64,000 bases of DNA from an uncultured Pelagibacteraceae bacterium (GCA_902617525.1 CACMWW010000004.1:12672-76671); one strand, 5' to 3'; positions 1,885-49,140 are shown, counted from the first letter of the stretch. Notes: a model not told the origin generated them from the sequence alone. Translations and numbers: made by a program.

Positions 1885-2826
1885 ATGAGTAAAAAGAATA
1901 AAGATAACTTTAAAGTAATAACTTTTTATAGATTTGTTAGTATACAAAAAATAGGTTCTATTAAGAAATATATTGAAATTTTTTTGAGAGAAAGACTTGT
2001 AAGAGGAACAATTTTAATTTCAAAAGAGGGTATTAATGGCTCAATTTCAGGAAGTTTTAAAGATATGAATCTAACAATAAATTATATAAAAAAAATTCTA
2101 AAAATTAGAAAAATAAATATTAATATAAACGATTCTGATTATTTACCTTTCAATAGAATAAAAGTTAGACTTAAAGATGAAATTATTGGTTTTGATAAAG
2201 GTAAAATAAACGTTAATAAAATACACAATAACCATGTTGACCCATCAAATTGGAATAAACTAATAAATCAAAAAAACGTAAAACTAATTGATACAAGAAA
2301 TAATTATGAAATTGGTATTGGCAGATTTTATAATTCGATTAATCCACAGACAAGTTCATTCAGAGAATTTCCAAAAAAATTTGAACAGCTTAAAATTAAT
2401 AAGACAGATAAATTAGCATTATATTGTACCGGTGGTATTAGATGTGAAAAAGCTGCAGTGTTTTTACAAAAAAAAGGTTTCAAACGTGTGTATCAATTAA
2501 AAGGGGGGGTTCTCAATTATTTAAATTATACAAGTAAAAGAAAGAGAAAATCATTATGGTATGGAGAATGTTTTGTTTTTGACGAGAGAGTTGCAGTCAA
2601 TAATCAACTTATTGAAGGAAATTATATGCAATGCTATGGATGCAGAAGACCAATCACAAAAAATGATATGAGATCAAAAAACTACATTAAAGGTGTACAG
2701 TGCTCTTATTGTTACAAAGAAAGAACAAAAGAACAAAAGAAACGATCATTAACAAGACAATTACAAATAGAAAAATATGAAAGTAAAGGTTTTCATCATA
2801 CATTTAAAAAAATAAATAAATCATAA
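1885..2826 (+). CDS. trhO: Rhodanese-domain tRNA uridine(34) hydroxylase (UPF0176/YceA family)
   Basis: 313 aa. N-terminal FYRF... UPF0176 region, rhodanese active-site loop CTGGIRCEKA, and a C-terminal Cys cluster (CYGC...CSYC). Confidence 0.8.
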   Translation: MSKKNKDNFKVITFYRFVSIQKIGSIKKYIEIFLRERLVRGTILISKEGINGSISGSFKDMNLTINYIKKILKIRKINININDSDYLPFNRIKVRLKDEIIGFDKGKINVNKIHNNHVDPSNWNKLINQKNVKLIDTRNNYEIGIGRFYNSINPQTSSFREFPKKFEQLKINKTDKLALYCTGGIRCEKAAVFLQKKGFKRVYQLKGGVLNYLNYTSKRKRKSLWYGECFVFDERVAVNNQLIEGNYMQCYGCRRPITKNDMRSKNYIKGVQCSYCYKERTKEQKKRSLTRQLQIEKYESKGFHHTFKKINKS

Positions 2827-3315
2827 GTTATTTTTTTTCACAAAACTTAATAAATTATCTTCATTAAATAAATATCCTTTTATTCCAAATTTTTTTGCAC
2901 ATAGCATATCGCTCTCGCTATCACCTATGAGTAAACTTTTTGTCTTATCGAAGTTCCATTGATCATGTGCCATTTCTAACATACCAGTGTTAGGTTTCCT
3001 TAAATTTGATAATTCTGGAAATTTAGAATGGTATTCTGGATGATATGGGGAGTAGTAAAACTCATCGATGTTAGTGTCGTTTTTATTTAATTCTGAATTT
3101 ATAAAACTATGCAACTTTTTAACATCCTGGGAAGAATAGTAGCCTCTAGATATACCCGACTGATTTGTTGCTACCAAAATTAAATACCCCTTGTTTTTAA
3201 AATACTTAATTGTTTGTATCGCGCCATCTATCCATTTAAAGTCCTCAATTTTATAAACGTATCCTTTATCAATATTTAAAACTCCGTCTCTATCAAAAAA
3301 AACAGCAGGACTCAT
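2821..3315 (-). CDS. gmhB: D-glycero-D-manno-heptose 1,7-bisphosphate 7-phosphatase (HAD superfamily)
   Basis: 164 aa. Motifs: HAD motif I FFDRDGVLN, VATNQSGISRGYY, LIGDSESDM. Sits next to hldC/hldA. Confidence 0.85.
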   Translation of the reverse strand: MSPAVFFDRDGVLNIDKGYVYKIEDFKWIDGAIQTIKYFKNKGYLILVATNQSGISRGYYSSQDVKKLHSFINSELNKNDTNIDEFYYSPYHPEYHSKFPELSNLRKPNTGMLEMAHDQWNFDKTKSLLIGDSESDMLCAKKFGIKGYLFNEDNLLSFVKKNNL

Positions 3316-3325
3316 TAGTTTAAAC

Positions 3326-3802
3326 TCATTGCTTTGATAATCTCTGATTAATTATTTTTGTAGTACTGTAACCACTTAATAGTTTTATTATTTTTATACT
3401 TCCACCATTTTTTATAACAGTATCAGCACCTACTATTGCCTTTTTTTCGTAATCACTACCTTTAATTAATATATCTGGCAATAATTCTTGAATAATTTTA
3501 AGGGGAGTATTTTCATCAAATAAAATAATAGCGTCAACAAAATCAGTATTTAATAATTTTTTTATCCTTATATTTTGATTATCAATTGGTCTACTATCTC
3601 CCTTTAATAACTTTACTGATTTATCAGAATTCAAAGCAATAATAAGAAAATCGCATGTTTGTTTTGACTCGTCTAATAACTTTAAATGTCCCATATGCAA
3701 TAAATCAAAACAGCCATTTGCAAGTCCTATACATAGGCCATCTTTTTTTAATAACATTATTTTCTTTTTAAGTTCTTTTAATGAGTAAGTTTTATTTACC
3801 AT
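3326..3802 (-). CDS. hldC: D-beta-D-heptose 1-phosphate adenylyltransferase (stand-alone RfaE domain II)
   Basis: 158 aa. Cytidylyltransferase-fold signature GCFDLLHMGHLKLL (HxGH). Its start shares one nucleotide with the hldA stop (TAATG at 3802). Confidence 0.85.
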   Translation of the reverse strand: MVNKTYSLKELKKKIMLLKKDGLCIGLANGCFDLLHMGHLKLLDESKQTCDFLIIALNSDKSVKLLKGDSRPIDNQNIRIKKLLNTDFVDAIILFDENTPLKIIQELLPDILIKGSDYEKKAIVGADTVIKNGGSIKIIKLLSGYSTTKIINQRLSKQ

Positions 3803-4785
3803 TAATTTATTAATTCATTGAGCGTCAAAGAGGCGGCTTCAATTTTTTGAACAACTTTTCCAGCTGCATAGTTTGCGATTTTAACTGATTTTTCTGTATC
3901 TATCCCAATAGCTTTCATTAACGCAAGAGAAGCAACAACAGTATCTCCTGCACCGGTTACATCTTCTGCCTTTTTTGTGGTAGCATTAAAATTTTTATGA
4001 TTTTGATCTGTAACTAAGGTCATCCCTTTCTCAGATCTGGTAACGAGAATTTCTGAAATCTTATTTTTTTTAATTATTTTTCTTGCAGCATTAATTATAT
4101 TTTTCTCATTTTGACTTAAATTAAAATTATTTGAAGCTATAGATAATTCGTGTAAGTTTGGGGTAACGATATCGGCACCTTTATATAAATTGAAATTCTT
4201 TTGTTTTGGATCAATTATAATTATTTTATTATTTTTTTTAGTTTTTTTAATTAAATTACTAAATAAAATTTTTCCAAAAAATCCTTTACCATAATCTGAG
4301 AGTAATACAATATCACATTTTTTAATTTCTTTCTCAAATATATCTAAGATTTTTGAATTTGCCTGATGACTTAACTTAAAATTATTTAATTCGTGATCAA
4401 GTCTCAGTAAATGTTTCTTTTTATCTACGAACCTAATTTTTTTAGGCACAAAATACCCTTTGTTCTTTATTGATATGCTCTTTAAATTTTTTTTATACTT
4501 TTGTAACTGATTAATTTTTTTGATGTCTTTCTTTTTATTATCACCTATATATATCATCGTAACATTGGCACCCAAACTAAGGATATTCTTAGCAACATTC
4601 CCTACACCGCCTAAGCCGTAAGCTTCTTTTTCATAAGACAGAATAGGTATTGGTGCCTCAGGCGAAATTCTATGAACTGACCCATAAATATACCTATCAA
4701 TAACTAAATCTCCTAAACATAAGACCCTTGTCTTCTTAATTTTTTGAAGATTCTTTTTTATTATTTCTCTAAGATTTTTTTCCAC
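3802..4785 (-). CDS. hldA: D-beta-D-heptose 7-phosphate kinase (stand-alone RfaE domain I, PfkB family)
   Basis: 327 aa. PfkB carbohydrate kinase layout with N-terminal LGDLVIDRY and C-terminal DVTGAGDTVVASLA. Confidence 0.85.
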   Translation of the reverse strand: MEKNLREIIKKNLQKIKKTRVLCLGDLVIDRYIYGSVHRISPEAPIPILSYEKEAYGLGGVGNVAKNILSLGANVTMIYIGDNKKKDIKKINQLQKYKKNLKSISIKNKGYFVPKKIRFVDKKKHLLRLDHELNNFKLSHQANSKILDIFEKEIKKCDIVLLSDYGKGFFGKILFSNLIKKTKKNNKIIIIDPKQKNFNLYKGADIVTPNLHELSIASNNFNLSQNEKNIINAARKIIKKNKISEILVTRSEKGMTLVTDQNHKNFNATTKKAEDVTGAGDTVVASLALMKAIGIDTEKSVKIANYAAGKVVQKIEAASLTLNELIN

Positions 4786-5266
4786 TTTTTATTAATTTTT
4801 TTATATGCTTCAAAAACTTATCCCAATCATCAGAAGATATTATATAACCTATGCATTTTTTTGAATGACATTTACATATATGGTCTCGATAGTCATTTTT
4901 ATCAAAGGTATAGCCATAATCATAAGAAAGCTCTTCTCCTTTATTAATTTTTTTAATTGATTTAATCCATATTTTATTTTTGATAATTTCCACCTCACAG
5001 TTTGGGTCACAAGAGTGATTAATATATCTTGCTTTATTGTAAAGTGGTGAACCATCAATATCGTATTTGCTGTTTAACTCAAAAATGTAAACTGAACCAA
5101 GATCCGGTGATTTCATTGACCTCTTAATCAAATTAGATGATCTTTTATCTCCCTCTTTTTTTGTTATTTTTTCACCTATATATTCGATGATAAGTGTGTT
5201 TTTTCTAATATTTTTAGTTGCAAAAATTCCAGATCCGTGAATTTCAGAATTACGCACTTTCCACAT
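4769..5266 (-). CDS. SET + post-SET domain protein (putative protein-lysine methyltransferase)
   Basis: 165 aa. Motifs: HGSGIFA (GxG), RYINHSCDPNC (NHSCxPN), ELSYDYGY (ELxYDY), and a post-SET Cys cluster CKCHSKKCIG. ATG confirmed at 5264-5266. The 3' end overlaps hldA by 17 nt. Confidence 0.85.
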   Translation of the reverse strand: MWKVRNSEIHGSGIFATKNIRKNTLIIEYIGEKITKKEGDKRSSNLIKRSMKSPDLGSVYIFELNSKYDIDGSPLYNKARYINHSCDPNCEVEIIKNKIWIKSIKKINKGEELSYDYGYTFDKNDYRDHICKCHSKKCIGYIISSDDWDKFLKHIKKLIKSGKKS

Positions 5267-5275
5267 ATTGATGAA

Positions 5276-6049
5276 TTAATTTGATTTATTGTATTTAAAT
5301 TTTCTAATTGCAAGAAAAGTAGAAATCAACAATTGAACAATGAATGCAACAATTAATGACGCTGCTAAATAATATTTAAAGGGCCATTTTTCAGATGAGA
5401 ATCTAATGTCATTAACATCATAAAATGCAAACATTGAACCTCCTTGAATTAAAGGTTGATATTTGCTTAATTTTTTTTGCGTTTCACTTGCAGCTACTTG
5501 TTTAACTTGAATTTCGTTTAATATTATATTCTTTTTTTTATCTTCTTCATTACCATCGGTATTATTTAATACGTCTGATCCTAGATAATCTATCTGAGCT
5601 TTATATATAGTCGCCTGTTCATCGATAGATGATTTAATTGCTTCTAAAGAATTTAATTCAGCCAAAATGAAAAGGTCCTCAAAAAAAGATCTGATTTTTG
5701 CTTTATCATTATATGATACGGTTAGAAAAGCATCTTTAAGAATAACAGTTCTGACCAATGAACTATTCATATTATTTTTTGATAATGCTTCGTTTATTGT
5801 ATTATATTTTGTTACTTCATAAGTGAACAAGTTATATACATCATCTTTATTAATTAAAAGATCTAGTGAAGGATTTTGAAATTCAAGATTATTTATTACT
5901 TTTGTTCTTGCCTTATATACTTCAGGTGTTGAATAGTAGTAATACATTCCTGAGGAAACTGATAAAAATACTACTAATAAAAACAAAATCCAATTTTTAA
6001 ACATTTGTTCAAAAATTGTTACAACGTCTACTTCATAATCGTCCTGCAT
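5276..6049 (-). CDS. Polysaccharide chain-length determinant (Wzz/PCP-like) membrane protein
   Basis: 257 aa. One TM helix near each end (ILFLLVVFLSVSSGMYYYY and YYLAASLIVAFIVQLLISTFLAI) flanking a helical or coiled periplasmic region. The topology is typical of Wzz. Confidence 0.55.
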   Translation of the reverse strand: MQDDYEVDVVTIFEQMFKNWILFLLVVFLSVSSGMYYYYSTPEVYKARTKVINNLEFQNPSLDLLINKDDVYNLFTYEVTKYNTINEALSKNNMNSSLVRTVILKDAFLTVSYNDKAKIRSFFEDLFILAELNSLEAIKSSIDEQATIYKAQIDYLGSDVLNNTDGNEEDKKKNIILNEIQVKQVAASETQKKLSKYQPLIQGGSMFAFYDVNDIRFSSEKWPFKYYLAASLIVAFIVQLLISTFLAIRKFKYNKSN

Positions 6050-6129
6050 GTCAGACCTTTCTGTGAATAATTATCATTTATATATTAAATTAATTATTTG
6101 TATAAGATTATTATTAAATTATGGATGAT

Positions 6130-8010
6130 TTATTTTTGATAGTTAAAGTCTGGTATTAACTTTTGAAAAATATCTATAATTTGTTCTTCATCAAAAGACT
6201 CTATGCAGGAATTAATATCTTCTAAATAATTAATAAGTAAGTCACTATTGAAACCTTCTTCTTTAGAAACTAAAATCCTTGGATGTTTTGTAATAGAGGA
6301 ATCTTTACCAATAACTAATTCTTCAAAAAGCTTTTCACCTTTACCTAAACCAATAATAGATATTTCTATGTCACCATCAGGATTTTTTCTGTCTTTAATG
6401 GTCAATCCTCTTAAATGAATCATTTTCTTTGCCAAGTCATAGATTTTAACTTGCTTGCCCATATCTAACAAAAATACTTCTCCATTATTTCCCATTGCCC
6501 CTGCCTGAATTACTAACTGAGAAGCCTCAGTGATTGTCATGAAATATCTTATAACATCTTCGTGTGTTACAGTTATTGGTCCGCCCTGACTAATTTGTTT
6601 TTCAAATAATGGGATCACTGACCCACTTGAGCCTATAACATTTCCAAAACGTACAATAGAGAAACGAGTATTGGCATTTGCCTTACTTTGTACAATCATT
6701 TCAGAAATTCTTTTAGTTACACCCATTATACTTGTTGGTCTTACAGCTTTATCAGTAGAAATTAATACAAAATTATTTACTTCAGCAGTTATTGAGGCTT
6801 TCACACAACTATATGTTCCTAAAATATTATTTTTAGCTCCTTCAATTATATTATTTTCCAAAATATTGACATGCTTGTAAGCAGCGGCATGATACACAGT
6901 ATTTATTTTATATTTATTACATATTTTTTTTATTAATTCTTCATTATTAACAGATCCTAAAACTGGGAGAAATTTAGTTTTGATGTTTTTTTTATTTTTT
7001 TCTTCGTTTAGTTTACCAGTTATTTCATATAAAGAAAATTCATCATGATCTAATAATATAACTATTATTGGATTTAAATTAATTAGCTGCAAGCAAAGCT
7101 CAGAACCGATTGAACCTCCTGCTCCTGTTACAAGAACGCTTCTTTTTTTAACATCACTATTTAATAATTCTTGAACAGGAGGAACGACTTCTCTTTCGAG
7201 TAATTTTGATATATTTAATTTTTTAAAACTAGAAAGATCTGATTTACCATCCAATATGTCAGATAATGAAGGTATCTGTTCAATTCTTATTGGAATATTC
7301 TCTAATATATCTAGTAAATACTTATCTTTATAAAGTTTATTTTCTGAAACAAGCAGCCTTTCGATATTATGTTTATTTATTATTTTATTTAGATCATTCA
7401 TAGAGTGTACAGGGAGATTGAATATCTTCTGATTTTTAAATATCTCTTTTTTACTGTTACTAAAGAAACATATTATTTTGATATTACTGCTATATTTCAA
7501 ACGTTCTGCCAGGCTTATTGCATCTTCAGATGTGCCAAGTATAGCAACATTTTCTGTTTTATTTGCTTTCATATGACTACTAATAGTTGAATTAAGTATT
7601 AGCCATCTTGCTGTAAGTCTTGAGGAAGATAGTAAGAGAATTAAAATTATCCAATTAATAAAGATTATAGACCTCGGAACATTCTCTGAGGGGGCAACTT
7701 CAAAAGCACCTAAAAAAATTAAAAAACCAAAAATAATTGCATGTACTATTGTTGCTTGAAATATAGTTAGAAGAAAATCAAGGTTTATGTATCTGGTAAC
7801 TGTATTATAGAGACCGAAGTAAAAGAAAATGGGAATTGCAGATATGATAGAAATTATAAATAATAAAACAATTTCATTGTTTGGAATAAAAATATTTTCT
7901 AATCTTAATGAAAAAGACAATTCTAGTGCCACTAATAGTATTAATGAGTCAATAAAAACCATCATTGACTGTTTTCTTTGTCTTGATTGAGAGGCTAATA
8001 ATCTAAGCAT
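6130..8010 (-). CDS. Membrane-anchored UDP-HexNAc 4,6-dehydratase (CapD/PglF/WbpM family)
   Basis: 626 aa. About 4 N-terminal TM helices, then an SDR domain with VLVTGAGGSIGSEL, HAAAYKHV and STDKAVRPTSIMGVTKR. Confidence 0.85.
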   Translation of the reverse strand: MLRLLASQSRQRKQSMMVFIDSLILLVALELSFSLRLENIFIPNNEIVLLFIISIISAIPIFFYFGLYNTVTRYINLDFLLTIFQATIVHAIIFGFLIFLGAFEVAPSENVPRSIIFINWIILILLLSSSRLTARWLILNSTISSHMKANKTENVAILGTSEDAISLAERLKYSSNIKIICFFSNSKKEIFKNQKIFNLPVHSMNDLNKIINKHNIERLLVSENKLYKDKYLLDILENIPIRIEQIPSLSDILDGKSDLSSFKKLNISKLLEREVVPPVQELLNSDVKKRSVLVTGAGGSIGSELCLQLINLNPIIVILLDHDEFSLYEITGKLNEEKNKKNIKTKFLPVLGSVNNEELIKKICNKYKINTVYHAAAYKHVNILENNIIEGAKNNILGTYSCVKASITAEVNNFVLISTDKAVRPTSIMGVTKRISEMIVQSKANANTRFSIVRFGNVIGSSGSVIPLFEKQISQGGPITVTHEDVIRYFMTITEASQLVIQAGAMGNNGEVFLLDMGKQVKIYDLAKKMIHLRGLTIKDRKNPDGDIEISIIGLGKGEKLFEELVIGKDSSITKHPRILVSKEEGFNSDLLINYLEDINSCIESFDEEQIIDIFQKLIPDFNYQK

Positions 8011-8027
8011 AAATAAATTTTTTTATT

Positions 8028-8750
8028 TCAATAACTTTTAAAAATACTGCTTGCACCTGGAGGTATTGAGGGCTTGAGTTTATTTTTTCTAAGAGAAATT
8101 TCTAATAAATCATTTTCAATTTTCATTTTTTTTAGATCCGAATTAATTAATTTTAGTGCCATTTTTTTTGAAAATATAGCAATTCCAGTATAAATAATTA
8201 ATTTTAAGTCTAAAATAATAGAATTATTTTTAACATATATTAGTCCCAACTTACTTTTCCAAGGACGTATTAATTGATTATAAGCTATTTCAGGATTTTC
8301 GTAATCAGACAATATTTCAGACTCATCTGAAAAAATAATTGAAGCAAAGTCAGTTATTCCTGGTTTAACGCTCAGTAATTTTGTTTCTTCAAGGGTGTAT
8401 ACATTAACATCTTTCTCTACATTTGGCCTTGGTCCAACTATCGACATATTTCCATTTAATACATTAAAAAATTGAGTAATCTCATCTATTTTAAACTTTC
8501 GTACAATTTTTCCTATTTTAGTAATTCTACTATCACCTTCCTTTGTTGATAAAAAACCATCTGAATTTGTTACTTTCATAGACCTTAATTTGATCATTTT
8601 AAATTTTTTTTTATTTTTCCCAATACGTTCTGAAAAAAAAAGAGGATTATGATAATCTTGAAAAAAAATTAGTATTGAAAATAAGGTTATTATTGGAGAA
8701 AAAAAAATTAGCAAAAGTAACGAAATTAAAGTATCAAAAATTATTTTCAT
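8028..8750 (-). CDS. Initiating polyprenyl-phosphate sugar-phosphate transferase (small PglC/WbaP-C type bacterial sugar transferase)
   Basis: 240 aa. N-terminal membrane helix, KMIKLRSM, and DEITQFFNVLNGNMSIVGPRP. Confidence 0.85.
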   Translation of the reverse strand: MKIIFDTLISLLLLIFFSPIITLFSILIFFQDYHNPLFFSERIGKNKKKFKMIKLRSMKVTNSDGFLSTKEGDSRITKIGKIVRKFKIDEITQFFNVLNGNMSIVGPRPNVEKDVNVYTLEETKLLSVKPGITDFASIIFSDESEILSDYENPEIAYNQLIRPWKSKLGLIYVKNNSIILDLKLIIYTGIAIFSKKMALKLINSDLKKMKIENDLLEISLRKNKLKPSIPPGASSIFKSY

Positions 8751-8758
8751 TACTTATA

Positions 8759-10493: not shown

Positions 10494-10504
10494 AACTATT
10501 TATA

Positions 10505-31931: not shown

Positions 31932-31991
31932 ATATATTAATTTTTATTGATTTATAGTGTAAAATCTTTGATTGGGCCAATCTAATGTGTT

Positions 31992-35204: not shown

Positions 35205-35272
35205 CTTATTTTTTATATTTAAGTTTATGCAAAGTATAATTTTGAGTGGAAAATTACAAGTATATAATATCT

Positions 35273-40636: not shown

Positions 40637-40638
40637 TG

Positions 40639-41463: not shown

Positions 41464-42890
41464 ATTTTATTTTTTAATAAATTATCTAAGTTGACTAAAT
41501 TAAATTTATTTAAAAGTACTCTAAATTTTAGAATAGCTAAAAATACAAAAATAAATATCAGTAAACATTTAAAAAGAAATGGTATTGAAAAATAGAATTC
41601 ATAAAAATAAATGAGAAAATATATTGATGTAATTTTTATGAAGTGCCTATCAATGTGTATGTTGCAGCCTTCTTTAAAAGCTAGAATTCTTCTCCAAAGT
41701 TGGACAGTAAAATTAGATAGTATAATTGATGTCAAACCACCATACATTCCACCATATTTTACTCCAAGATAAGTTATAAAAATGAAAAAAATACTAGAAA
41801 TTGTCATAGAGGTTGCAAGGATTTTTATCCTTTTTTGACTTACTAAATAAAAATTATAAATCGCACCATAAAGATATGCAAATATTATCAAATACCATAT
41901 AGGAATTAATGGTGCCGACTCGACAAATTTTCCGTGAGTTAACAAATTAACAACATCATAGCTAATTAAAATTAATATTATTCCTCCTGAAAAAAAAATT
42001 GTTGAGCAAATTTTTATAAATTTTGTTGTTTCTGTAATTTTAATAATATTTTTTTCAGTAAACGATTTGATAGTATCAGACATTAAGGTTTTAGTTAATG
42101 CTTTGTAAATAAACTTAAATATATTTGAATAACTTTGCGCATGAGAATAAATACCCAAAGTAGATAATGATAAGAAATATTGAATAAAATATCTGTCCGA
42201 TATATTTCCAATTGTTTCTGCAAGATTTGAGGGTATTGCTGGTAGTCCAGTTTTAATTACTTCTTCAATCCATTTTCTTGAAATTTCTATTTTTATATTT
42301 TTTGACAAAAATATTATTTCGAAAAACAATGAAATTGTGTTGACAATTAATGGTCCTAAAAAAAGTGAAATTACACCTAACTCTAGAACAATTAAAAAAA
42401 TTAAAACACTAACAAGGCTTATAAGGTTCCTAATTATTTCTAGTGCAAAGTATAATTTTGCTTTTTTTTGAATTATTAATAAGGCATTAACGGTTGGCCA
42501 GAACATTCCAGCTAAAACTCCTATTAATGCTATTTCAAATAATTGTTTATAACTGGTGTCATATTCGGCAATCACAAAATCCAAAATAAAACTACCAGAT
42601 AACCAATATAGAAGAACCCATAGTGACTTCAGAGAAAAATCAACTAAAAGTGTGTTAAAGATAAGTTTCTTTCTATCAACTTCATTGATTATAAAGTAAT
42701 TACTTCCCAATATCCACTCAGCGCCAGAGGATGCGAGTGGTCCAATAGGCGCAATAATGACCATAATTATTGCTACTACGCCAAAATCTTTTGGCTCTAG
42801 ATAGAATGTTGTAACAGGAATTAAAATTAAAAAAGATATAAATGCTTGAATAATTGAAGGGGCAAGAAAATAATTAAAATTTTTAAACAT
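41460..42890 (-). CDS. wzx: Wzx-type oligosaccharide flippase (MOP/polysaccharide biosynthesis protein family)
   Basis: 476 aa with about 12-14 TM segments and no soluble domain. The position within a glycan cluster fits a flippase. Confidence 0.65.
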   Translation of the reverse strand: MFKNFNYFLAPSIIQAFISFLILIPVTTFYLEPKDFGVVAIIMVIIAPIGPLASSGAEWILGSNYFIINEVDRKKLIFNTLLVDFSLKSLWVLLYWLSGSFILDFVIAEYDTSYKQLFEIALIGVLAGMFWPTVNALLIIQKKAKLYFALEIIRNLISLVSVLIFLIVLELGVISLFLGPLIVNTISLFFEIIFLSKNIKIEISRKWIEEVIKTGLPAIPSNLAETIGNISDRYFIQYFLSLSTLGIYSHAQSYSNIFKFIYKALTKTLMSDTIKSFTEKNIIKITETTKFIKICSTIFFSGGIILILISYDVVNLLTHGKFVESAPLIPIWYLIIFAYLYGAIYNFYLVSQKRIKILATSMTISSIFFIFITYLGVKYGGMYGGLTSIILSNFTVQLWRRILAFKEGCNIHIDRHFIKITSIYFLIYFYEFYFSIPFLFKCLLIFIFVFLAILKFRVLLNKFNLVNLDNLLKNKI

Positions 42891-42909: not shown

Positions 42910-43860
42910 TTAATTTTTTTTAAAATCTGTGTAGGTTTTTTTTAGACCATCAATTAAATTTATTTTTGGCGCCCAACCCAATGATTTTATAAGTGAGATA
43001 TCAAGCACCTTTCTTGGAGTTCCATCTGGTTGATTTTCATCAAATACTATGTCTCCCTTATATCCAATAATATTAGCGATTTGATGCGATAATTCATTGA
43101 TTGATATTTCTTCTCCTGAACCAACGTTAAGATGCGAAGTTTTGCTAATTACTTTTCTCTGATATTCATCATCATCTATTTTCATAACATGTAAAGTTGC
43201 CTTTGCAACGTCATCAACATAAAGAAATTCTCTCAGAGGTTTACCTGTACCCCATACATTAAATTTACTTTTTTTTTCTAACTTAGCTGTATGCATTCTT
43301 GAAATAAGGCCTGGGATTACGTGGCTATTTAATGGATGATAATTATCTCCAGGACCATACAAATTGCAAGGCATTAGAGATCTATAATCAGTTTTATATT
43401 GCTTATTGTAAGCTTCACATAATTTGATACCCGCAATTTTAGCTAAAGCATATGGTTCATTTGTTTGCTCTAACTTACCACTCAATAGGCAGTCTTCCTT
43501 TATTGGTTGTTCTGCATACTTTGGGTATATACAGGATGATCCAAGAAAAATTAATTTTGAAATAGAATTTTGAAAAGCTCCACTTATTAAATTTGTTTGA
43601 ATTGAAATATTTTCTAATAGAAAATCCACTGGATATTTACTATTTGCATGAATTCCACCTACTTTAGCTGCAGCTATAATAAGGTAATCAGGCTTATTAT
43701 TTTTTAAAAATTGATAAACATCATTTTTATTTAAAAGATCTAGATTTCTTCTATCAGCTAATATTATTTCTGATGCAAAATTTTGTTTCTGTAACTCACT
43801 CAGTATAGCTGAGCCAACCATTCCATTGTGACCAGCTACAAATACTTTACCAAACTTCAT
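42910..43860 (-). CDS. fcl: GDP-L-fucose synthase (GDP-4-keto-6-deoxymannose 3,5-epimerase/4-reductase)
   Basis: 316 aa. Has VFVAGHNGMVGSAI, GSSCIYP, and YALAKIAG. Lies directly downstream of gmd. Confidence 0.9.
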   Translation of the reverse strand: MKFGKVFVAGHNGMVGSAILSELQKQNFASEIILADRRNLDLLNKNDVYQFLKNNKPDYLIIAAAKVGGIHANSKYPVDFLLENISIQTNLISGAFQNSISKLIFLGSSCIYPKYAEQPIKEDCLLSGKLEQTNEPYALAKIAGIKLCEAYNKQYKTDYRSLMPCNLYGPGDNYHPLNSHVIPGLISRMHTAKLEKKSKFNVWGTGKPLREFLYVDDVAKATLHVMKIDDDEYQRKVISKTSHLNVGSGEEISINELSHQIANIIGYKGDIVFDENQPDGTPRKVLDISLIKSLGWAPKINLIDGLKKTYTDFKKN

Positions 43861-43881: not shown

Positions 43882-44949
43882 TTAATTTTTATTTAAGTCA
43901 ACTTGCAACATCTCATCAACTAGTTCATCTAAGGAAATTTTTGGCTTCCAACCAAGAACTTTTCTTGCATTTGAAGAGTCACCCAACAAACTATCCACTT
44001 CTGATGGACGTATATATTTTTTATCTACCTTAACAATTGTATCACCAACATTTAATCCATCATATGTTTTTGATAAAGATGAAACTATACCCTCTTCACC
44101 TAGTTTTTTACCTCGCCATTTAATTTTAATACCAACTTTTTCAGATACAATTTTAACAAAATCTCTCACACTTACCTGATGTCCGGTACTAATAACAAAA
44201 TCTCTTGGCTTGTCTTGTTGCAGCATCATCCACTGCATTTCTACATAATCTTTAGCGTGTCCCCAATCTCTCATAGCATCAAGGTTACCTAAATACAAAG
44301 TTTTATTATTTGAATGACTTATATTTGAAAAAAACCTGGTTATCTTCCTTGTTACAAATGTTTCTCCTCTTCTAGGTGACTCGTGATTGAATAGTATTCC
44401 ATTGCATGCATACATTCCATATGCCTCACGATAATTTATTGTAATCCAATAAGCATATAATTTTGCAACGGCATATGGACTTCTTGGGTAAAATGGAGTT
44501 TTTTCAGTTTGCGGTATTTCAGTTACTTTACCATATAGTTCTGATGTAGAAGCTTGATAGAATTTTGTTTTTAAAAGGTTAAGCAACCTCAAACCTTCTA
44601 ATAATCTTAATGTACCTAAGGCATCAACATTTGCAGTATATTCAGCAGATTCAAACGACACAGCAACATGCGATTGAGCTGCAAGATTATAAACTTCATC
44701 TGGTCTAGTTTCCTGAAGAATTCTAATTAAATTTGCACCATCAGTAAGATCACCATAGTGCAAATAAAAACTTTTATCCTTAAACTGTGGCTCTTGATAA
44801 ATATGATCAATCCTTTCAGTGTTTAATGATGAAGATCTTCTTTTAATACCATGCACTTCATATCCTTTATTGAGCAGTAACTCTGCCATGTATGAGCCAT
44901 CTTGACCAGTAACACCAGTAATTAAAGCCACTTTCTTTTTATTATTCAT
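43882..44949 (-). CDS. gmd: GDP-mannose 4,6-dehydratase
   Basis: 355 aa. Has [50 protein letters not shown], and [10 protein letters not shown]. Confidence 0.92.
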
Positions 44950-46232
44950 TACAACCTACCATCGACAGATTTTGCTGGAAATGCATACTTAATATCATAA
45001 ATAATATTTTTTTTCTTGGCATACATTATTAATTTTTTGAGTCCCATATTTCTAAAAATTTTGTGGTTAACCGCAAGTATTAAGCCATCATAATAATTTG
45101 ATTTCAAATTATCTACTAGCTCGATTTTATATTCATTCCACACATCTTTTTTATTAACTATAGGGTCGAAAATATCAACTTCCAAATTATACAATTTCTT
45201 TAATTTTTTATATATATCTACAACTAATGTATTTCTGATATCCCGGCAGTCCTCCTTATAAGCTATACCAAGGATTAATATACGAGATTTGTTAAGCTTT
45301 ATTTTCTTTTTTTTAAAAAGTTTGCATACTTCTTCTGCAATATAATAGCCCATATTATCATTAACTCTACGTCCTGCCTTAATTAAATTAGGTTTATAAC
45401 CAATTGCAGTTGATTTATGAATTAGATAATAAGGATCTACGCCAATGCAATGTCCTCCAACGAGACCAGGTCTAAAATTCAGAAAATTCCATTTCGTTTC
45501 TGCGGCCTTTAATATTTCTTCTGTATTTAAATTCATTTTGTTAAAAATAATTGATAATTCATTCATTAAAGCGATATTTATATCCCTTTGAACATTTTCA
45601 ATAACTTTTACTGCTTCAGCTGCTTTAATACTTGATACTTCGTGTGTTCCACTTAAGATAATTTGATTGTATAAATTAGAGATTTTTTTTGTAATTTTTT
45701 TATTTGATCCTGCAACAATTTTTTTAATCTTTGTAAAATGATTTTTTTTGTCTCCAGGATTTATTCTTTCAGGACTATATCCACAATAAAAACCTGGCTG
45801 ATTAGACTCTTTGTTGAGATATTTTAACTTTGATATTTTTTCAATTATAGGTGCACAAATATCATCCGTCACCCCTGGATATACTGTTGATTCAAATATT
45901 ACAATATCTTGATTAGAAATAATTTTACCTAAAGCCTTACTTGCATCTATAAGAGGTTTTAAATTTGGTTTTTTTAAATGATTTTTTGGAGTAGGGACAG
46001 CAACTATATAGATGTTGCAATCTTTAATATCCTTAATACTTGATGTAAAACTTAGCTTTTTTGACTGTTTAAAGTCATTAACTGATACTTCATTAGTTAT
46101 ATCTAATTTTTCTTTAAGCTCATTAATACGAGTCTTTTTAATATCATATCCTATAGTTTTGAATTTTTTACCAAACTCAATAGCAAGGGGTAAACCAACA
46201 TATCCTAGTCCTATAATAGCAATTTTTTTCAT
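44949..46232 (-). CDS. Nucleotide-sugar 6-dehydrogenase (TviB/WbpO-like UDP-HexNAc dehydrogenase type)
   Basis: 427 aa. Has [21 protein letters not shown] and the catalytic-Cys segment [12 protein letters not shown]. Confidence 0.8.
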
Positions 46233-46233
46233 A

Positions 46234-46938
46234 TTACTTGAAATCTTCTATCTTAATTTTGTCTAGCCTTTCAGGTGTACCTATATCAATAAATACTTTA
46301 TTAGTTGCGTACAAAAACAAATTATTTTCAAAACTGTCCTTTATGAAATAGTTTTCTAGTGCGAAAGGATATTTATTTGGCATTTTATCAATGATTTCCC
46401 TATTAAAACAATATACTCCAGCATCAGACTGAAGTTTTGATAATTTATTTTTATCACCCAAGCTTATAATTTTTTCATTATTATCGACATAAATTTGCCT
46501 ATAATTACCTGAAAATTTTGGTATACCACTTGATAATGTTATATCCGCTTTTTTTGATATATGAAAATCAAGCATTTCTGCATAATTTAATTTTATAAAT
46601 GTATCACCATTAATTACAAAAAATATTTTGCTTCTTACGAGTTTCTCTGCATTTTTTATAGCTCCGCCTGTTCCAATTTGTGTTTCTTCATGAGAAAAGA
46701 TAATTTCTATATTATTGAGCATTTTATTATTTAAAAAATGATCCTTAAGAGGATTTGCGTAAAAACCTGTACATAATATAAATCTTCGAAAACCTTGATT
46801 AAAAAGGTAATTAATTGTGATATCAATTAAGTACTCCCCCCCAATTTGAACAAGAGTTTTAGGCTTATCCTTAAGCCTTTTTTTTATTCTTGAACCCTTG
46901 CCTCCAGTAAGAATCAATATGTCTGTATTATTGATCAT
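46234..46938 (-). CDS. Sugar-1-phosphate nucleotidyltransferase (HddC-like, possibly heptose-1-phosphate guanylyltransferase)
   Basis: 234 aa. Has ILTGGKGSRIKKRLKDKPKTLVQIGG, GTGGAI, and a short single-domain form. Substrate is inferred only from the hddA/gmhA context. Confidence 0.65.
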   Translation of the reverse strand: MINNTDILILTGGKGSRIKKRLKDKPKTLVQIGGEYLIDITINYLFNQGFRRFILCTGFYANPLKDHFLNNKMLNNIEIIFSHEETQIGTGGAIKNAEKLVRSKIFFVINGDTFIKLNYAEMLDFHISKKADITLSSGIPKFSGNYRQIYVDNNEKIISLGDKNKLSKLQSDAGVYCFNREIIDKMPNKYPFALENYFIKDSFENNLFLYATNKVFIDIGTPERLDKIKIEDFK

Positions 46939-48209
46939 TCTTGTTTATTTAAACGATTTTTATAATTTAAACTTGCTAACAGCAATCCAATAGGTAGATA
47001 TGAAATTATTGATGACCAATTATTAAAAAAACTCATAGAAGTTGTTAAAGGAAAAAAATTAATCAAGATGCATATTGTCAGGCAAATAATATAATTTTCA
47101 TTGTCATTAAGTGTCCTGACCGATTTAAACTTAAAACTTTTTTTAAATAAAAAGTATATTAAGTAGATATAAAGAACAGAGATAATTGAAGTGCCAACTA
47201 TTCCCTGCTCTGAAAGTAATTCTAAATAGATATTATGAGGATGTGTGCTACAACTAAAACTTATAGTATCATAATCAATTCCCTCATAATTTACTTTGAA
47301 TTCATCATTTGAACATAATTTTCTAAACATTTTACTTCCTTGTCCAAATATTGGATTATCTAAAAACATATTATAGCTACTTTCAAACATTGAGTTATGT
47401 TTTGGTGAAAGAATAAATATTTCTTTATTTGTATTAACACTTTCATAAATAGTATTTACATATCGATCTTTTAAATTTGGAAAAGTCATAAATAATATGA
47501 CACATGAAATAATTATTAAAAAAAATGTTCCTAATTTCAAAAATAGATACCCTCTTATAAATATAGATATCGCTAATATACCAAATATAAATAAAATAAA
47601 CTCACTTCTATCTCCTATATAGAAAAGTAAAGGAGCATTTAAAAGAACAATTGCAATTACTGTATAAGGAATTTTTTCAGTATTCCATAGTGAGGTTGCA
47701 ATACATAGTAAAGACATTCTACAAATATAATATCCGAGTAGATCCCTGTCGTTAAATACTCCGGTTAATGAATGATTTCCATTTGCTGAAAATCCAAAAA
47801 TATTAAAATCAAAAAATAGTTGATAATATCCATCTAAGCTAACAAATAAAACAGATAAAAATAAAATAAATTTAAATTTTTTTATGAATGTTTCATGATT
47901 ATTGTAGAAATAAACAATTGCAAAAATAAAAAAAATATACCTAAAAAAAAATAATGAGTGTTCCAAAGATAAATAAATATCTGTCGAAAAAAGGGATCTC
48001 ATTAAAATATAGGCATAAAAGCTTATCGAAATTAGAAAAAATTGGTTTGTGTAATAAGTCCATAGTTTAAGTCTAATACTTATAAATATAAAATATGCTG
48101 CAATTATAGTAATAATTAAATCACCAATGAAAGGGCCTGTTAAAAGAGCAATGGGAATTAAATACAAAAGGTATAGTAATTTATTCTCAAAATTTTTAAT
48201 TCTATTCAT
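46935..48209 (-). CDS. O-antigen ligase/polymerase family membrane protein (Wzy_C domain)
   Basis: 424 aa with at least 10 TM segments. A periplasmic loop carries STHPHNIYLELLSEQGIVG, the H.HN.yL..l.e.G..G signature of the O-antigen ligase/polymerase domain. Confidence 0.7.
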   Translation of the reverse strand: MNRIKNFENKLLYLLYLIPIALLTGPFIGDLIITIIAAYFIFISIRLKLWTYYTNQFFLISISFYAYILMRSLFSTDIYLSLEHSLFFFRYIFFIFAIVYFYNNHETFIKKFKFILFLSVLFVSLDGYYQLFFDFNIFGFSANGNHSLTGVFNDRDLLGYYICRMSLLCIATSLWNTEKIPYTVIAIVLLNAPLLFYIGDRSEFILFIFGILAISIFIRGYLFLKLGTFFLIIISCVILFMTFPNLKDRYVNTIYESVNTNKEIFILSPKHNSMFESSYNMFLDNPIFGQGSKMFRKLCSNDEFKVNYEGIDYDTISFSCSTHPHNIYLELLSEQGIVGTSIISVLYIYLIYFLFKKSFKFKSVRTLNDNENYIICLTICILINFFPLTTSMSFFNNWSSIISYLPIGLLLASLNYKNRLNKQE

Positions 48210-49140
48210 TGATCTTAAATAAAAACTTGTAAGAAAAATTTATAAGATAAAGCATAGAAATCGTAAAAAATAGCAGTATTGTAAAGTTTAAACTAATTAC
48301 ATATGAAACTGATTCTGATATTGCTGCTAAGCTAAAACCAGCAGCGAATACCAGTTCTCTCACACCGATTCCACCAAAGCTTATTGGTGCAGAGGTAATA
48401 ATTGTCATTAGTGGCATAATTAATATAAGCAGTTCAAATTTAATAGTTTTTTCTAAATCTAAAAATATAAAATACACAATAAGAATCGTACAAAACTGTA
48501 GTAAGACGCTTAAAAATACACTGTATAAGAATACAAATTTTCTTTTTTCGACTTCGAGTAGTAATGGTATAAATAAGTTAGAAAATTTTTTTAAATAATA
48601 AAAATTAAATAAATTAAATAATTTTGCAATTTTTAAAACTTGAAAAACTGTAATCAAAAAAAATAAAATACCAAAAAAAAGAATTAAGATTATTTGCAAT
48701 TTACTAACATTAAAAACGCTAGCATATAAAAATAGTGCTCCTGAAAATGTAGTTATTAATGTAGCAAGCATTCCACACGTTCTATCATAAAGAAGAGTAA
48801 TTATTGTTTGAGACTTTGTTGGCCCTATATATCGATTTATTAGAAAATATCTTGAGATTTCTGACGTAATGCCTGGTAATACAAATAATGAGAGAGCATT
48901 ACTGATAATTGTTATATCAAGAGATTTATAATAACTGCTATTCTTAAATATTGAAACAATTACATTTAGTCTTAATGCATTAAGCAAAAATAGTAGTATA
49001 AAAATTAAGATAGAGAAAAGCGTATAAGTAACCGAAATATTTTGAATTGAAGAAACAGATTCTATTTTATCGATATTATAGTAAACAAAAAACAAAAGTG
49101 AAATTGAAACTAAAATTCTAATTATGTACTTTATTTTCAT
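48202..49140 (-). CDS. UPF0104 / lysyl-PG-synthase-TM-like 'flippase-like' membrane protein
   Basis: 312 aa with about 8 TM segments. The N-terminal pattern (...LLFLLNALRLNVI...) is typical of the family. The call is motif-level only. Confidence 0.45.
   Translation of the reverse strand: MKIKYIIRILVSISLLFFVYYNIDKIESVSSIQNISVTYTLFSILIFILLFLLNALRLNVIVSIFKNSSYYKSLDITIISNALSLFVLPGITSEISRYFLINRYIGPTKSQTIITLLYDRTCGMLATLITTFSGALFLYASVFNVSKLQIILILFFGILFFLITVFQVLKIAKLFNLFNFYYLKKFSNLFIPLLLEVEKRKFVFLYSVFLSVLLQFCTILIVYFIFLDLEKTIKFELLILIMPLMTIITSAPISFGGIGVRELVFAAGFSLAAISESVSYVISLNFTILLFFTISMLYLINFSYKFLFKINE

Follow-up and report, generated by a model that had tools for sequence, protein, structure and literature searches.

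In Pelagibacterales, O-chain clusters (Wilhelm 2007, PMC2217521; Grote 2012, PMC3448164; Haro-Moreno 2025, PMC11898729) have a mean size of 46 kb and 45.7 genes, with a range of 10–90 kb (PMC11898729), and the canonical HVR2 is defined by its position between 16S–23S and 5S (PMC3448164, PMC11898729). The relocated O-chain cluster of SAR11 genomospecies Ib.4 (PMC11898729, Fig. S2) is not placed between 23S and 5S, keeps 16S–23S at one end and peptidoglycan genes at the other, and adjoins tRNA-Val and tRNA-Met. In the HIMB59 order (SAR11 clade V / AEGEAN-169; PMC10734472), the largest under-recruiting island is that of O-chain synthesis, the rRNA operon is not split by an island, and SET-domain methyltransferases occur in flexible islands. 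Replacement flexible genomic islands (Lopez-Perez 2014, PMC4033161) and enterobacterial O-antigen and K-antigen loci occupy a fixed chromosomal position with equivalent functions encoded by unrelated genes, show raised border divergence, and include identical islands in different backgrounds and the reverse; the divergence peaks at the borders of published replacement islands are mostly synonymous (PMC4033161).

The DNA analyzed here, hereafter the window, is a stretch of 64,000 nucleotides from an uncultured Pelagibacteraceae bacterium (GCA_902617525.1, CACMWW010000004.1:12672-76671). Judging from gene content and relatives, its gene train at 2821–49140 very probably holds the principal biosynthetic genes of a Wzx-dependent cluster for a surface heteropolysaccharide of the O-chain or capsule type. 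The cluster would lie in a flexible genomic island of the replacement type, about 63 kb or more in size, whose host is an uncultured but abundant marine alphaproteobacterium with the database label Pelagibacteraceae/Pelagibacterales (SAR11 in the broad sense). Like the published O-chain clusters and HVR2, the locus has glycosyltransferases, epimerases, DegT aminotransferases, Gmd, sulfotransferases, methyltransferases, and membrane proteins without a known family, a comparable length and gene count, many paralogues, a GC content below the genome mean, a near-unique gene set per genome common to clonal relatives, and no mobile-element hallmarks. In contrast to them, it is bounded on the observed side by acyltransferase-trhO-SET and not by rRNA, its GC dip is smaller (27.9% in the train vs 29.5% in the genome's own flank; published, 23.8% vs 29.4%), its lineage is distant from cultured Pelagibacter, and it has an internal scaffold (SET, Wzy_C protein, UDPG-DH, tRNA-Met) of which the available parts of those accounts make no mention. 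The Wzx/Wzz/ligase logic and the initiating phosphoglycosyl transferase are shared with replacement islands and enterobacterial loci. However, with its 45 co-oriented genes the island far exceeds typical enterobacterial O-antigen loci in length and is packed more tightly; no regulator is evident, and border divergence reaches the protein level (trhO, ~50%), unlike in the replacement islands.

Architecture and gene content of the train

ORF calling in the window gave exactly 45 consecutive non-nested ORFs at 2821–49140, all on the minus strand, the same count and coordinates as in the initial annotation. The coding fraction was 99.1%, with 435 non-coding nt in total; the median gap at the junctions was 2 nt, 18 junctions overlapped, and the three largest gaps had the annotated sizes and positions (80 nt, 6050–6129; 68 nt, 35205–35272; 60 nt, 31932–31991). 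All four annotated 4-nt overlaps (ATGA; 25831, 32891, 41460, and 46935) and five of the six 1-nt TAATG overlaps (3802, 19085, 19234, 39521, and 44949) were present; the annotated TAATG at 14688 reads TAGTG, with TAG as the stop and GTG as the start codon. Assuming 80% same-strand neighbours, the probability of 45 co-oriented genes is 0.8^44 = 5e-5 per start, a rough value calculated without a genome-wide null, and a chance origin of the run is unlikely.

JGI contig Ga0612096_0000144 (46,737 bp) has exactly the length of the span 2377–49113 and is 99.99% identical to it over its first 12.9 kb. Its far end encodes the exact Wzy_C protein, and gene order and product lengths there agree with those of the window. 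A single-cell genome contig spans 47719–51355 at 99.97% identity, and Tara and single-cell genome contigs match the window at 99.7–100%. Because independent metagenome and single-cell contigs match the window, an assembly chimera is excluded. The sole possible promoter site upstream of the train is the intergenic region at 49141–49213, at which short-read assemblies from three JGI samples stop (contig ends 49113/49139, 49165, and 49178).

Gene families were assigned with Pfam and NCBIfam profiles, by which 62 ORFs in the window were scanned. Several NCBIfam matches fall under curated cutoffs, and individual enzyme names are therefore approximate. The two profile sets agreed with the annotated glycan content (nucleotide sugars, glycosyltransferases, and assembly) for nearly all of the following 45 genes (TM numbers are estimates).

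2821–3315, minus: gmhB (TIGR00213 best match, slightly under curated cutoff)
3326–3802, minus: HldE adenylyltransferase domain, separate gene (TIGR02199 best match, slightly under cutoff)
3802–4785, minus: HldE kinase domain, separate gene (TIGR02198 best match, slightly under cutoff)
4769–5266, minus: SET-domain (plus post-SET) lysine-methyltransferase-like (Pfam SET, E 1.2e-26)
5276–6049, minus: Wzz-like chain-length determinant, 2 TM (Pfam Wzz, 26.8 bits vs cutoff 25.5)
6130–8010, minus: PglF/CapD-like membrane 4,6-dehydratase (Pfam Polysacc_synt_2, E 8e-114)
8028–8750, minus: small phosphoglycosyl transferase (Pfam Bac_transf, E 5e-47)
8759–9670, minus: split transketolase, C half (Pfam Transketolase_N/pyr/C set)
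9660–10493, minus: split transketolase, N half (same set)
10505–11611, minus: DegT aminotransferase (Pfam DegT, E 2e-82)
11624–12388, minus: SAM methyltransferase (Pfam)
12381–13625, minus: GT4 (Pfam)
13630–14688, minus: GT9 heptosyltransferase-like (Pfam)
14688–16049, minus: 10-TM protein, candidate polymerase (no Pfam or NCBIfam match)
16081–17247, minus: 388-aa protein (no Pfam or NCBIfam match)
17250–19085, minus: NodU/CmcH-type carbamoyltransferase (Carbam_trans_N, E 1e-101; Carbam_trans_C, E 1e-68)
19085–19234, minus: DUF5989 protein, 49 aa (Pfam DUF5989, E 3e-20)
19234–19644, minus: 4-TM small protein (no Pfam or NCBIfam family match)
19635–20387, minus: GT2 (Pfam)
20390–22063, minus: 11-TM protein of no known family
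22066–23040, minus: HddA-like GHMP heptose kinase (NCBIfam HddA, E 1.9e-44, under curated cutoff)
23050–24009, minus: epimerase (Pfam)
24014–24883, minus: methyltransferase (Pfam)
24890–25834, minus: GT2 (Pfam)
25831–26382, minus: GmhA-like SIS isomerase (NCBIfam GmhA, E 3e-20, under curated cutoff)
26390–28003, minus: 537-aa protein (weak capsule-synthesis match)
28018–29892, minus: AsnB-type amidotransferase (TIGR01536, 353.5 bits vs cutoff 267)
29909–30991, minus: GFO/IDH/MocA oxidoreductase (Pfam)
30948–31931, 31992–32894, and 34185–35204, minus: three SDR epimerase/dehydratases (Pfam)
32891–34177, minus: GT4-like protein (Pfam)
35273–36625, minus: UDP-sugar dehydrogenase (Pfam)
36639–37799, minus: NeuC (TIGR03568, 417 bits vs cutoff 235.9)
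37778–38818, minus: NeuB (353.9 bits, under cutoff 399.65)
38811–39521, minus: CMP-sugar synthetase, PseF-like
39521–40636, minus: sulfotransferase (Pfam Sulfotransfer_3)
40639–41463, minus: FkbM methyltransferase (Pfam Methyltransf_21)
41460–42890, minus: Wzx-type flippase, 10 TM (Pfam Polysacc_synt_3)
42910–43860, minus: GDP-fucose synthase-like (Pfam Epimerase)
43882–44949, minus: Gmd (Pfam GDP_Man_Dehyd, 490 bits)
44949–46232, minus: UDP-sugar dehydrogenase (Pfam UDPG_MGDP_dh)
46234–46938, minus: sugar-1-P nucleotidyltransferase (Pfam NTP_transferase; HddC-like, E 1e-28)
46935–48209, minus: Wzy_C-domain protein, O-antigen ligase-like, 9 TM (Pfam Wzy_C, 57.1 bits vs cutoff 31.7)
48202–49140, minus: LPG_synthase_TM / flippase-like membrane protein (UPF0104), first (5′-most) gene of the train (Pfam, 89.8 bits; TIGR00374)

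The genes at 6130–11611 form an initiation and amino-sugar module, those at 17250–19644 a carbamoylation module, and NeuC, NeuB, and the CMP-sugar synthetase (36639–39521) a nonulosonic-acid module. The 49-aa ORF at 19085–19234 is, on its family match, a real gene. The best PDB match of the SET protein was the KMT2D SET domain (E 2.4e-23), with the NHSC and ELxYDY motifs aligned.

Flanks, extent, and lineage of the locus

The features on the left of the train and, from 49141, on its right are as follows.

1–751, plus: acyltransferase (PlsC-like), truncated by the window start (Pfam Acyltransf_2)
753–1775, minus: Gmd-like GDP-mannose 4,6-dehydratase paralogue (TIGR01472, 379.5 bits, under cutoff 415)
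1885–2826, plus: trhO, tRNA U34 hydroxylase (NF001133, 262.6 bits vs cutoff 170)
49141–49213: divergent intergenic region, 73 nt, 12% GC
49214–50140, plus: MT (Pfam)
50137–51351: UDPG-DH (Pfam)
51311–52300: epimerase (Pfam)
52287–53549: GT4 (Pfam)
53553–55373: second AsnB-like gene (Pfam)
55413–56939: DUF6798 protein, 10 TM (Pfam)
56974–58239, plus: protein of no known family
58236–59033, plus: TylF-like MT (Pfam)
59035–59111, minus: tRNA-Met (CAT) (ARAGORN and Rfam)
59249–59956, plus: protein of no known family
60010–61095: formyltransferase (NCBIfam Fmt/ArnA-like)
61110–62039: GT2 (Pfam)
62041–63234: ATP-grasp protein (Pfam)
up to 63992: two small ORFs

Glycan-type genes thus continue to the right window edge, as annotated, on mixed strands at 49214–59033, and the island extends past the window on this side. 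The implied right boundary at 49,140 did not hold, since the genes at 49.2–52.3 kb are as strain-specific as the train (90%-identity clusters with 1–2 members). UDPG-DH and the epimerase are 60% and 50% identical, respectively, to genes adjoining Wzy_C in relatives. The tRNA-Met is an internal landmark of the locus: an identical copy (77/77) lies 4.2 kb from trhO in the relative L192, in which the genes after it show no similarity to those in the window.

The closest named genome was the single-cell genome AG-430-P03, labelled 'uncultured Pelagibacteraceae bacterium', and the flank SCP2 protein has an identical counterpart in NCBI under the label 'Candidatus Pelagibacterales bacterium'. By its database labels, the lineage falls within Pelagibacteraceae/Pelagibacterales in NCBI's broad usage, in which Pelagibacteraceae includes HIMB59/clade V. 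To this extent the annotated link to SAR11 stands, but the lineage is far from cultured Pelagibacter, which was absent from the top 120 PntB or PurK homologues; other alphaproteobacterial orders appeared in these lists at 39–42% and 75%. The HIMB59 order is likewise one of streamlined AT-rich marine alphaproteobacteria in NCBI's Pelagibacteraceae. [quoted passage not shown]

It is unlikely that the island is the canonical SAR11 HVR2, the O-chain cluster splitting the rRNA operon (23S/5S) of a Pelagibacter genome. The gene classes, the size and gene number near the published means, the labels of the relatives, and the AT-rich sequence are compatible with it; an rRNA gene could lie at the right end beyond the window, and tRNA-Val and tRNA-Met genes, as beside the Ib.4 cluster, also occur at this locus. 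On the other hand, no rRNA was found in the window, its own left flank (4.9 kb), or the 20-kb loci of eight relatives (L002, L186, L189–192, L195, and L196), no 5S rRNA adjoins tRNA-Met, and the left border is made up of protein-coding core genes, with neither 23S nor 5S. The trhO of canonical Pelagibacter and LD12 is 44–46% identical and lies in another, non-glycan context. The 806-genome O-chain cluster table of PMC11898729 contains none of the four single-cell genomes that have this flank. Unlike in Ib.4, neither 16S–23S nor peptidoglycan genes were seen in the flank, and five to seven core genes lie between the island and tRNA-Val (GAC), which is 5.3 kb left of trhO. With no rRNA gene on the observed side, identity with a 23S/5S-bounded HVR2 is unsupported, and the annotated likeness does not amount to equivalence.

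Border divergence and variation among relatives

A replacement-type island agrees with the graded divergence at the left border. PntB was 100% identical in amino acids, but in a copy whose contig, at 117,319 bp, is as long as the window's source contig; compared with relatives, identity was 87–88% (nt) for FGase-DUF1329, 79% for Inositol-P/SCP2, 72–77% for HhH-GPD/acyltransferase, and 66–69% for trhO, followed by no match. The collapse occurs at the SCP2/HhH-GPD junction, ~0.75 kb left of the window. The annotated sharp boundary at ~2.8 kb was thus not confirmed: hyper-divergence starts ~3.5 kb further left, and gene 753–1775, present in L002 and L186 and absent between acyltransferase and trhO in L182–185, L092, L093, L095, and L190, is a presence/absence gene (an indel). 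The acyltransferase (275 aa at full length, on L173; 64–72% aa identity in relatives; one member in its 90%-identity cluster) is a syntenic border gene that is already hyper-divergent. The trhO gene, whose 3′ end overlaps the first train gene's end by 6 nt, is a conserved positional anchor, yet the most diverged flank gene (48–58% aa identity across all syntenic relatives; a one-member cluster). Since this divergence exceeds the mostly synonymous peaks of PMC4033161, old allelic lineages or relaxed trhO constraint could contribute.

The ADP-heptose genes (2821–4785) are wedged between trhO and SET; SET directly adjoins trhO without them in L182–186, and a gmhB-like gene is present in L190, L191, and L196. 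SET is a conserved anchor at the left end of the island (66–72% aa identity in relatives carrying it; not found in L096). The Wzy_C protein is a second recurrent anchor, with 30–39% aa identity in L002, L092, L094, L095, L190, L191, and L192; its gene lies 0–3 genes from SET in these relatives vs 41.7 kb in the window.

The annotated hypervariable, strain-replaceable envelope-glycan island was borne out by relatives with a conserved left flank. Among eight relatives with a 10.3-kb core flank 96.4–99.4% identical (nt), 26 of 28 pairs had 0 bp in common on the island side at a threshold of ≥85% identity, and seven more distant relatives kept the left-flank gene order with different glycan genes. 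L190 and L195 have a common island (95–96%) with unlike trhO (71.5%); L191 and L195 have a common trhO (99.1%) with different islands. Among the genomes recovered, none above about 90% nt identity to this one in the nearest flank had another island. All near-identical contigs share gene order, so the variability shown is that of the locus and lineage, not of the strain's immediate population. This pattern matches replacement islands (PMC4033161) and Pelagibacterales O-chain clusters (PMC11898729).

Recent acquisition as a mobile island, either a phage or an integrative-element remnant at a tRNA gene, is very improbable. A tRNA-anchored phage insertion model has been proposed for Pelagibacter HVR (bioRxiv 10.64898/2026.04.03.716430), tRNA-Met is inside the locus with tRNA-Val outside trhO, and island GC is slightly under that of the flank (27.9% vs 29.5%; in relatives, 26.7–27.5% vs 31.8–32.2%). 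However, no integrase, recombinase, transposase, or phage gene was found among the 62 ORFs (Pfam, NCBIfam) and no long repeat in the window, only AT-rich chance matches or Rossmann-motif paralogy; the tRNA 3′ end has no direct repeat, composition and codon-position GC are native-like throughout, and instead of a sharp att site the borders have graded divergence and a mosaic exchange that is typical of homologous recombination. Least credible is a conserved housekeeping LPS/capsule operon with differences arising as an artefact of distant comparison taxa: gene order is identical in all contigs at 99.7–100% (at least five JGI samples, Tara stations, and the single-cell genome) and exact-protein counts of island genes are not below those of flank genes, but the conspecific-level relatives are wholly different at this locus in those 26 pairs, and 90%-identity protein cluster sizes, a population proxy, fall from ~850 to 1–5 into the border and island (FGase, 857; HhH-GPD, 1; island genes, 2–5).

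Predicted assembly and replacement of the surface polysaccharide

In the replacement-type island, the activated-sugar genes cover ADP-/GDP-heptose, GDP-fucose, CMP-nonulosonic acid, UDP-uronic acids, and 4-amino-6-deoxy-hexosamine. The small phosphoglycosyl transferase would initiate repeat-unit synthesis on a lipid carrier; there are also six glycosyltransferases and a set of tailoring enzymes (carbamoyl-, sulfo-, and methyl-transferases, an amidotransferase, and the split transketolase-like pair). Assembly is represented by the Wzx flippase, the Wzz-like regulator, and the Wzy_C ligase-like protein; no Wzy polymerase was assigned by any Pfam or NCBIfam model, and two multi-TM proteins of no known family are polymerase candidates. 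The order of the reactions and the acceptor of the finished chain, whether lipid A-core or another molecule, are predicted by analogy with established O-antigen/capsule biochemistry.

The locus scaffold (acyltransferase, trhO, SET, Wzy_C protein, UDPG-DH, and tRNA-Met) is conserved, and each genome has its own cassette between and around these anchors. The mosaic, hyper-divergent border, the native base composition, and the lack of an integrase suggest that whole cassettes may be replaced via homologous recombination in the flanks. The island is an ordinary but clean replacement-type O-chain/capsule island; its kind is well known, and its trhO-SET…tRNA-Met location is unusual. Selection on surface structure may come from phages or grazers, or may be frequency-dependent in some other way.

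Organization and coding content of the gene train

The ORF map contained exactly 45 consecutive non-nested ORFs at 2821-49140, all on the minus strand, with a coding density of 99.1%, a median intergenic distance of 2 nt, and 18 overlapping junctions. This agreed exactly with the single-strand train and the gaps described in the initial annotation. Most of the stop/start overlaps listed there were also reproduced, except that the junction at 14688 reads TAGTG, with a TAG stop and a GTG start, instead of TAATG. The GC content of the whole window was 27.4%, with no marked dip.

Independent contigs matched this sequence. Contigs from Tara, MDSW, and single-cell genomes were 99.7-100% identical to the window. 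JGI contig Ga0612096_0000144 (46,737 bp, exactly the length of window 2377-49113) was 99.99% identical to it over its first 12.9 kb and carried the exact Wzy_C protein at its other end, with matching gene order and product lengths. The window sequence is therefore not an assembly artefact. A metagenome copy of window 4481-8100 (L084; JGI 3300065499) was 99.72% identical with a 10-bp length difference that leaves the 626-aa PglF-like dehydratase as two pieces of 419 and 198 aa; a natural frameshift variant and an assembly error are both possible.

The only sizeable non-coding stretch upstream of the train was a 73-nt divergent region at 49141-49213 (12% GC). In the scans for promoters and terminators, all measures but one stayed at or under the shuffled expectation; the exception was terminator-like sites at 40-60 kb (8 versus 4.5 expected, about 1.7 sd). 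The three larger gaps of the train had no promoter or terminator signal on the minus strand. The scans are therefore uninformative on operon structure.

Pfam and NCBIfam families supported the envelope-glycan content that had been attributed to the train, and also the continuation of glycan genes to the right window edge at 64 kb. Surface-polysaccharide genes dominated the train (45 genes in 46.3 kb). The families included those for heptose activation (gmhB, separate HldE kinase and adenylyltransferase domains, and GmhA-, HddA-, and HddC-like proteins), a PglF-like dehydratase, a DegT aminotransferase, a small phosphoglycosyl transferase, GT2, GT4, and GT9 glycosyltransferases, an AsnB-type amidotransferase, UDP-sugar dehydrogenases (two within the train and a third to its right), NeuC/NeuB with a CMP-sugar synthetase, a sulfotransferase, four methyltransferases, Gmd with a fucose synthase-like protein, Wzx, a weak Wzz, a Wzy_C ligase-like protein, and a UPF0104 membrane protein. 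The features with coordinates are as follows.

Features of the window (those within 2821-49140 are on the minus strand)
753-1775, Gmd-like dehydratase
1885-2826, plus strand, trhO
4769-5266, minus strand, SET-domain protein
5276-6049, Wzz (Pfam, weak, 26.8 bits)
8028-8750, initiating phosphoglycosyl transferase (Pfam Bac_transf)
8759-10493, minus strand, split transketolase, separate C-terminal and N-terminal genes (Pfam)
14688-16049, 10-TM protein, candidate Wzy
17250-19644, minus strand, NodU/CmcH-type carbamoyltransferase, 49-aa DUF5989 protein, and 4-TM protein of no known family
20390-22063, 11-TM protein, candidate Wzy
28018-29892, AsnB-type amidotransferase
35273-36625, UDP-sugar dehydrogenase
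41460-42890, Wzx flippase (Pfam Polysacc_synt_3)
43882-44949, Gmd-like dehydratase
44949-46232, UDP-sugar dehydrogenase
46935-48209, Wzy_C protein
50137-51351, UDP-sugar dehydrogenase
53553-55373, AsnB-type amidotransferase
59035-59111, minus strand, tRNA-Met(CAT)

The initiating phosphoglycosyl transferase, the Wzx flippase, and the Wzz regulator expected of a Wzx/Wzy-type system were all present. No Pfam or NCBIfam model assigned a Wzy polymerase in the window; neither of the two multi-TM candidates had a match to these models, and the Pfam domain of the Wzy_C protein is compatible with either a ligase or a polymerase. As judged from the domain assignments, the enzyme repertoire is that of a predicted Wzx-dependent heteropolysaccharide pathway, in which the glycan would be assembled on a lipid carrier and would then be flipped, polymerised, and ligated to the envelope.

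Because the split transketolase adjoins a DegT aminotransferase and a methyltransferase inside the sugar cluster, its position suggests that it acts outside central metabolism, on a sugar with a two-carbon branch or extension. The carbamoyltransferase, DUF5989, and 4-TM genes were joined by 1-nt overlaps and look like a fixed three-gene carbamoylation module, with the 49-aa ORF at 19085-19234 confirmed as a gene by its DUF5989 match. Paralogues comprised two AsnB-type amidotransferases, three UDP-sugar dehydrogenases, two Gmd-like dehydratases, and eight further SDR epimerase/dehydratase genes over 64 kb, matching the paralogue enrichment reported for SAR11 hypervariable region 2 (HVR2).

Variation at the locus and position of its borders

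A flank contig (L173), found via the exact dehydratase protein, reached 4.9 kb to the left of the window. The gene order on this flank was FGase, L36, tRNA-Val(GAC), DUF1329, inositol monophosphatase, SCP2, HhH-GPD glycosylase, and acyltransferase, followed by the gmd-like gene of the window, which only some of the relatives had, and then trhO. The same left-flank order was found in at least 15 relatives (single-cell genomes, Tara contigs, and nanopore assemblies), and every relative carried glycan genes to the right of trhO, in differing gene sets.

Eight loci with an identical SCP2, from seven nanopore contigs (0.39-1.41 Mb) and one single-cell genome, were compared. Their 10.3-kb core side showed 96.4-99.4% nucleotide identity, and on the island side 0 bp was common at 85% identity or higher in 26 of the 28 pairs. 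All island versions of the compared relatives contained glycan genes. The alignment to relatives thus bore out the proposal of a hypervariable island. Among the eight loci, the identity dropped abruptly from 96-97% to 67-72% exactly at the SCP2/HhH-GPD junction, remained at this lower level across HhH-GPD, acyltransferase, trhO, and SET, and was gone beyond. The border was mosaic: loci L190 and L195 had the same island and different trhO genes (71.5%), and L191 and L195 had the same trhO (99.1%) and different islands.

Between the window and its relatives, the nucleotide identity fell in steps: it was 87-88% for FGase-DUF1329, 79% for Inositol-P/SCP2, 72-77% for HhH-GPD/acyltransferase, 66-69% for trhO, and 70-73% for SET, and no homology was found beyond SET except scattered matches of 64-73% to sugar-gene homologues. 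Protein clusters at 90% identity, a proxy for the recruitment of metagenomic reads, contained 857 members for FGase, 1 each for HhH-GPD, acyltransferase, and trhO, 2-5 for the island genes, and 1-2 for the genes at 49.2-52.3 kb. The diverged zone therefore begins about 0.75 kb to the left of the window and extends beyond 49,140 to at least its right edge, so that the left boundary proposed near 2.8 kb could not be retained. Beyond the right edge, a search with the ATP-grasp protein recovered only contigs of 2-3 kb.

Recurrent contig breaks were also considered as marks of both island boundaries. Short-read assemblies of three to four JGI samples broke at about 2029-2377 and 49113-49178, and one JGI sample tiled the window as ..-2109, 2377-49113, and 49139-57611. 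The breaks were rejected as proof because of their low-GC sites and the strain-specific genes past 49.2 kb. The right break fell within the 12%-GC intergenic stretch and the left break within an AT-rich low-complexity part of trhO; since both sites are very AT-rich, the breaks at the train ends may have arisen in assembly and need not mark a biological boundary. In another contig, L193 1-7611 (ENA grub_3 contig_7483, 1.41 Mb), the place of the island after trhO was taken by a second copy of the core flank, inverted and 79% identical; the contig is probably a chimera of two strains joined at the hypervariable locus.

Pfam detected no integrase, transposase, or IS element in the 62 ORFs scanned in the window, and the repeat search found no att repeats there, only low-complexity or paralogue motifs, in agreement with the initial annotation. 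A tRNA-integrated mobile island is disfavored, as neither a site-specific recombinase nor a repeat of the tRNA-Met 3' end was found in the window. The same locus held non-homologous gene sets of equivalent function, and the raised border divergence and the mosaics pointed to homologous recombination. Because of the shared core flank, the unshared island side, the mosaic border, and the collapsing cluster sizes, the locus is, on these alignments, classed as a replacement-type island. Its cassettes would be replaced by homologous recombination in the flanks, the mode described for replacement islands (PMC4033161), and the variants may be kept by frequency-dependent selection.

Conserved anchors and relation to SAR11 HVR2

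Four anchors recurred in relatives: the SET-domain protein, the Wzy_C protein (30-39% identity), a UDPG dehydrogenase (about 60% identity), and tRNA-Met(CAT), which was identical to that at 3478-3554 of the relative L192 (77/77). The distance from tRNA-Met to trhO was 4.2 kb in L192 versus 56 kb in the window, and the SET and Wzy_C genes of the window were 41.7 kb apart. The tRNA-Met of the window sits inside the glycan region and has a C1/A72 end, which is typical of initiator tRNA.

The SET protein (165 aa; SET and post-SET domains) is lysine-methyltransferase-like. Its gene was at the left end of the island in all relatives whose island side was read, except L096 (L002 11939-12445; L182 10942-11430; L186 10919-11416; L190 5394-5870). 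It was conserved better than the adjacent core gene trhO (66-72% versus 48-58% aa identity), and its catalytic motifs NHSC and ELxYDY aligned to human KMT2D. Instead of being a passenger, the SET protein might have a functional link to the envelope pathway. On the core side, the SCP2/sterol-carrier-like protein (104 aa; L173 2889-3203, about 0.8-1.1 kb to the left of the window start) was 96-100% identical across all relatives, its neighbours being 64-79% identical; the exact protein is shared by a very large population and was indexed in 1,872 blocks of the collection of contigs, of which 19 had contigs >1 Mb. The locus combines a fixed chromosomal scaffold with cassette diversity, native composition, and no mobility genes among the ORFs scanned.

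HVR2, or the O-chain biosynthetic cluster (OBC), is by definition bounded by 16S-23S and by 5S (PMC3448164; PMC11898729), and the split rRNA operon is absent from clades IV and V (PMC7318151). The content of the island resembled HVR2/OBC, in which surface-polysaccharide genes dominate over tens of kb and about 50 genes. The left border consisted of core protein genes, with no rRNA boundary on the observed left side or in the window to 64 kb. Rfam searches for rRNA genes found only tRNAs in the window, in L002, L082, and L091, and in the 20-kb loci of seven relatives, and the 137 nt adjacent to tRNA-Met contained no 5S rRNA match even at E<=1. The table of 806 O-chain clusters in PMC11898729 lists none of the four single-cell genomes that have this flank, and AG-430-P03 and three other single-cell genomes had no match in the tables published for SAR11, HIMB59, and O-chain clusters. 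For genomospecies Ib.4, PMC11898729 describes a cluster relocated to the vicinity of tRNA-Val and tRNA-Met; peptidoglycan genes are reported there, whereas none were seen at the present locus.

The relatives were labeled 'uncultured Pelagibacteraceae bacterium' (AG-430-P03), 'Candidatus Pelagibacterales bacterium', and 'Pelagibacteraceae bacterium'; NCBI Pelagibacteraceae also includes HIMB59. The trhO proteins of canonical Pelagibacter (Ia) and LD12 showed only 44-46% identity and had another gene context. No cultured Pelagibacter was among the best 120 PntB or PurK matches, which listed other alphaproteobacterial orders. The SAR11 link made in the initial annotation is accepted in the broad sense for the host, based on the database labels, but the island is not filed as HVR2, as no rRNA was found in the window or the examined flanks and the trhO context differs.

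Significance of the locus

The feature is real and of a known kind, and its locus is non-canonical. We tentatively raise the possibility, itself rather doubtful, that this is an undescribed home of glycan islands in a very abundant uncultured SAR11-like lineage with an unsplit rRNA operon, having a scaffold of trhO, SET, Wzy_C, UDPG dehydrogenase, and tRNA-Met and cassettes of up to about 42 kb swapped as a single co-oriented train.

In the most abundant bacteria of the ocean, surface-glycan islands are the principal place where strains are known to differ in gene content, and they are thought to govern phage susceptibility. Published surveys look for such clusters at the rRNA-bounded position, and the present locus is a clean example located elsewhere. 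Surveys of that kind (PMC11898729) would miss this lineage entirely, and trhO, SET, the Wzy_C protein, and tRNA-Met could be alternative search anchors. Otherwise, established biology was confirmed, and the interest lies in the alternative anchoring (trhO-SET…tRNA-Met), the conserved SET gene, and the unusual length of the train, whose 45 genes and 99% coding density raise the question of long-unit transcription in a regulator-poor genome.
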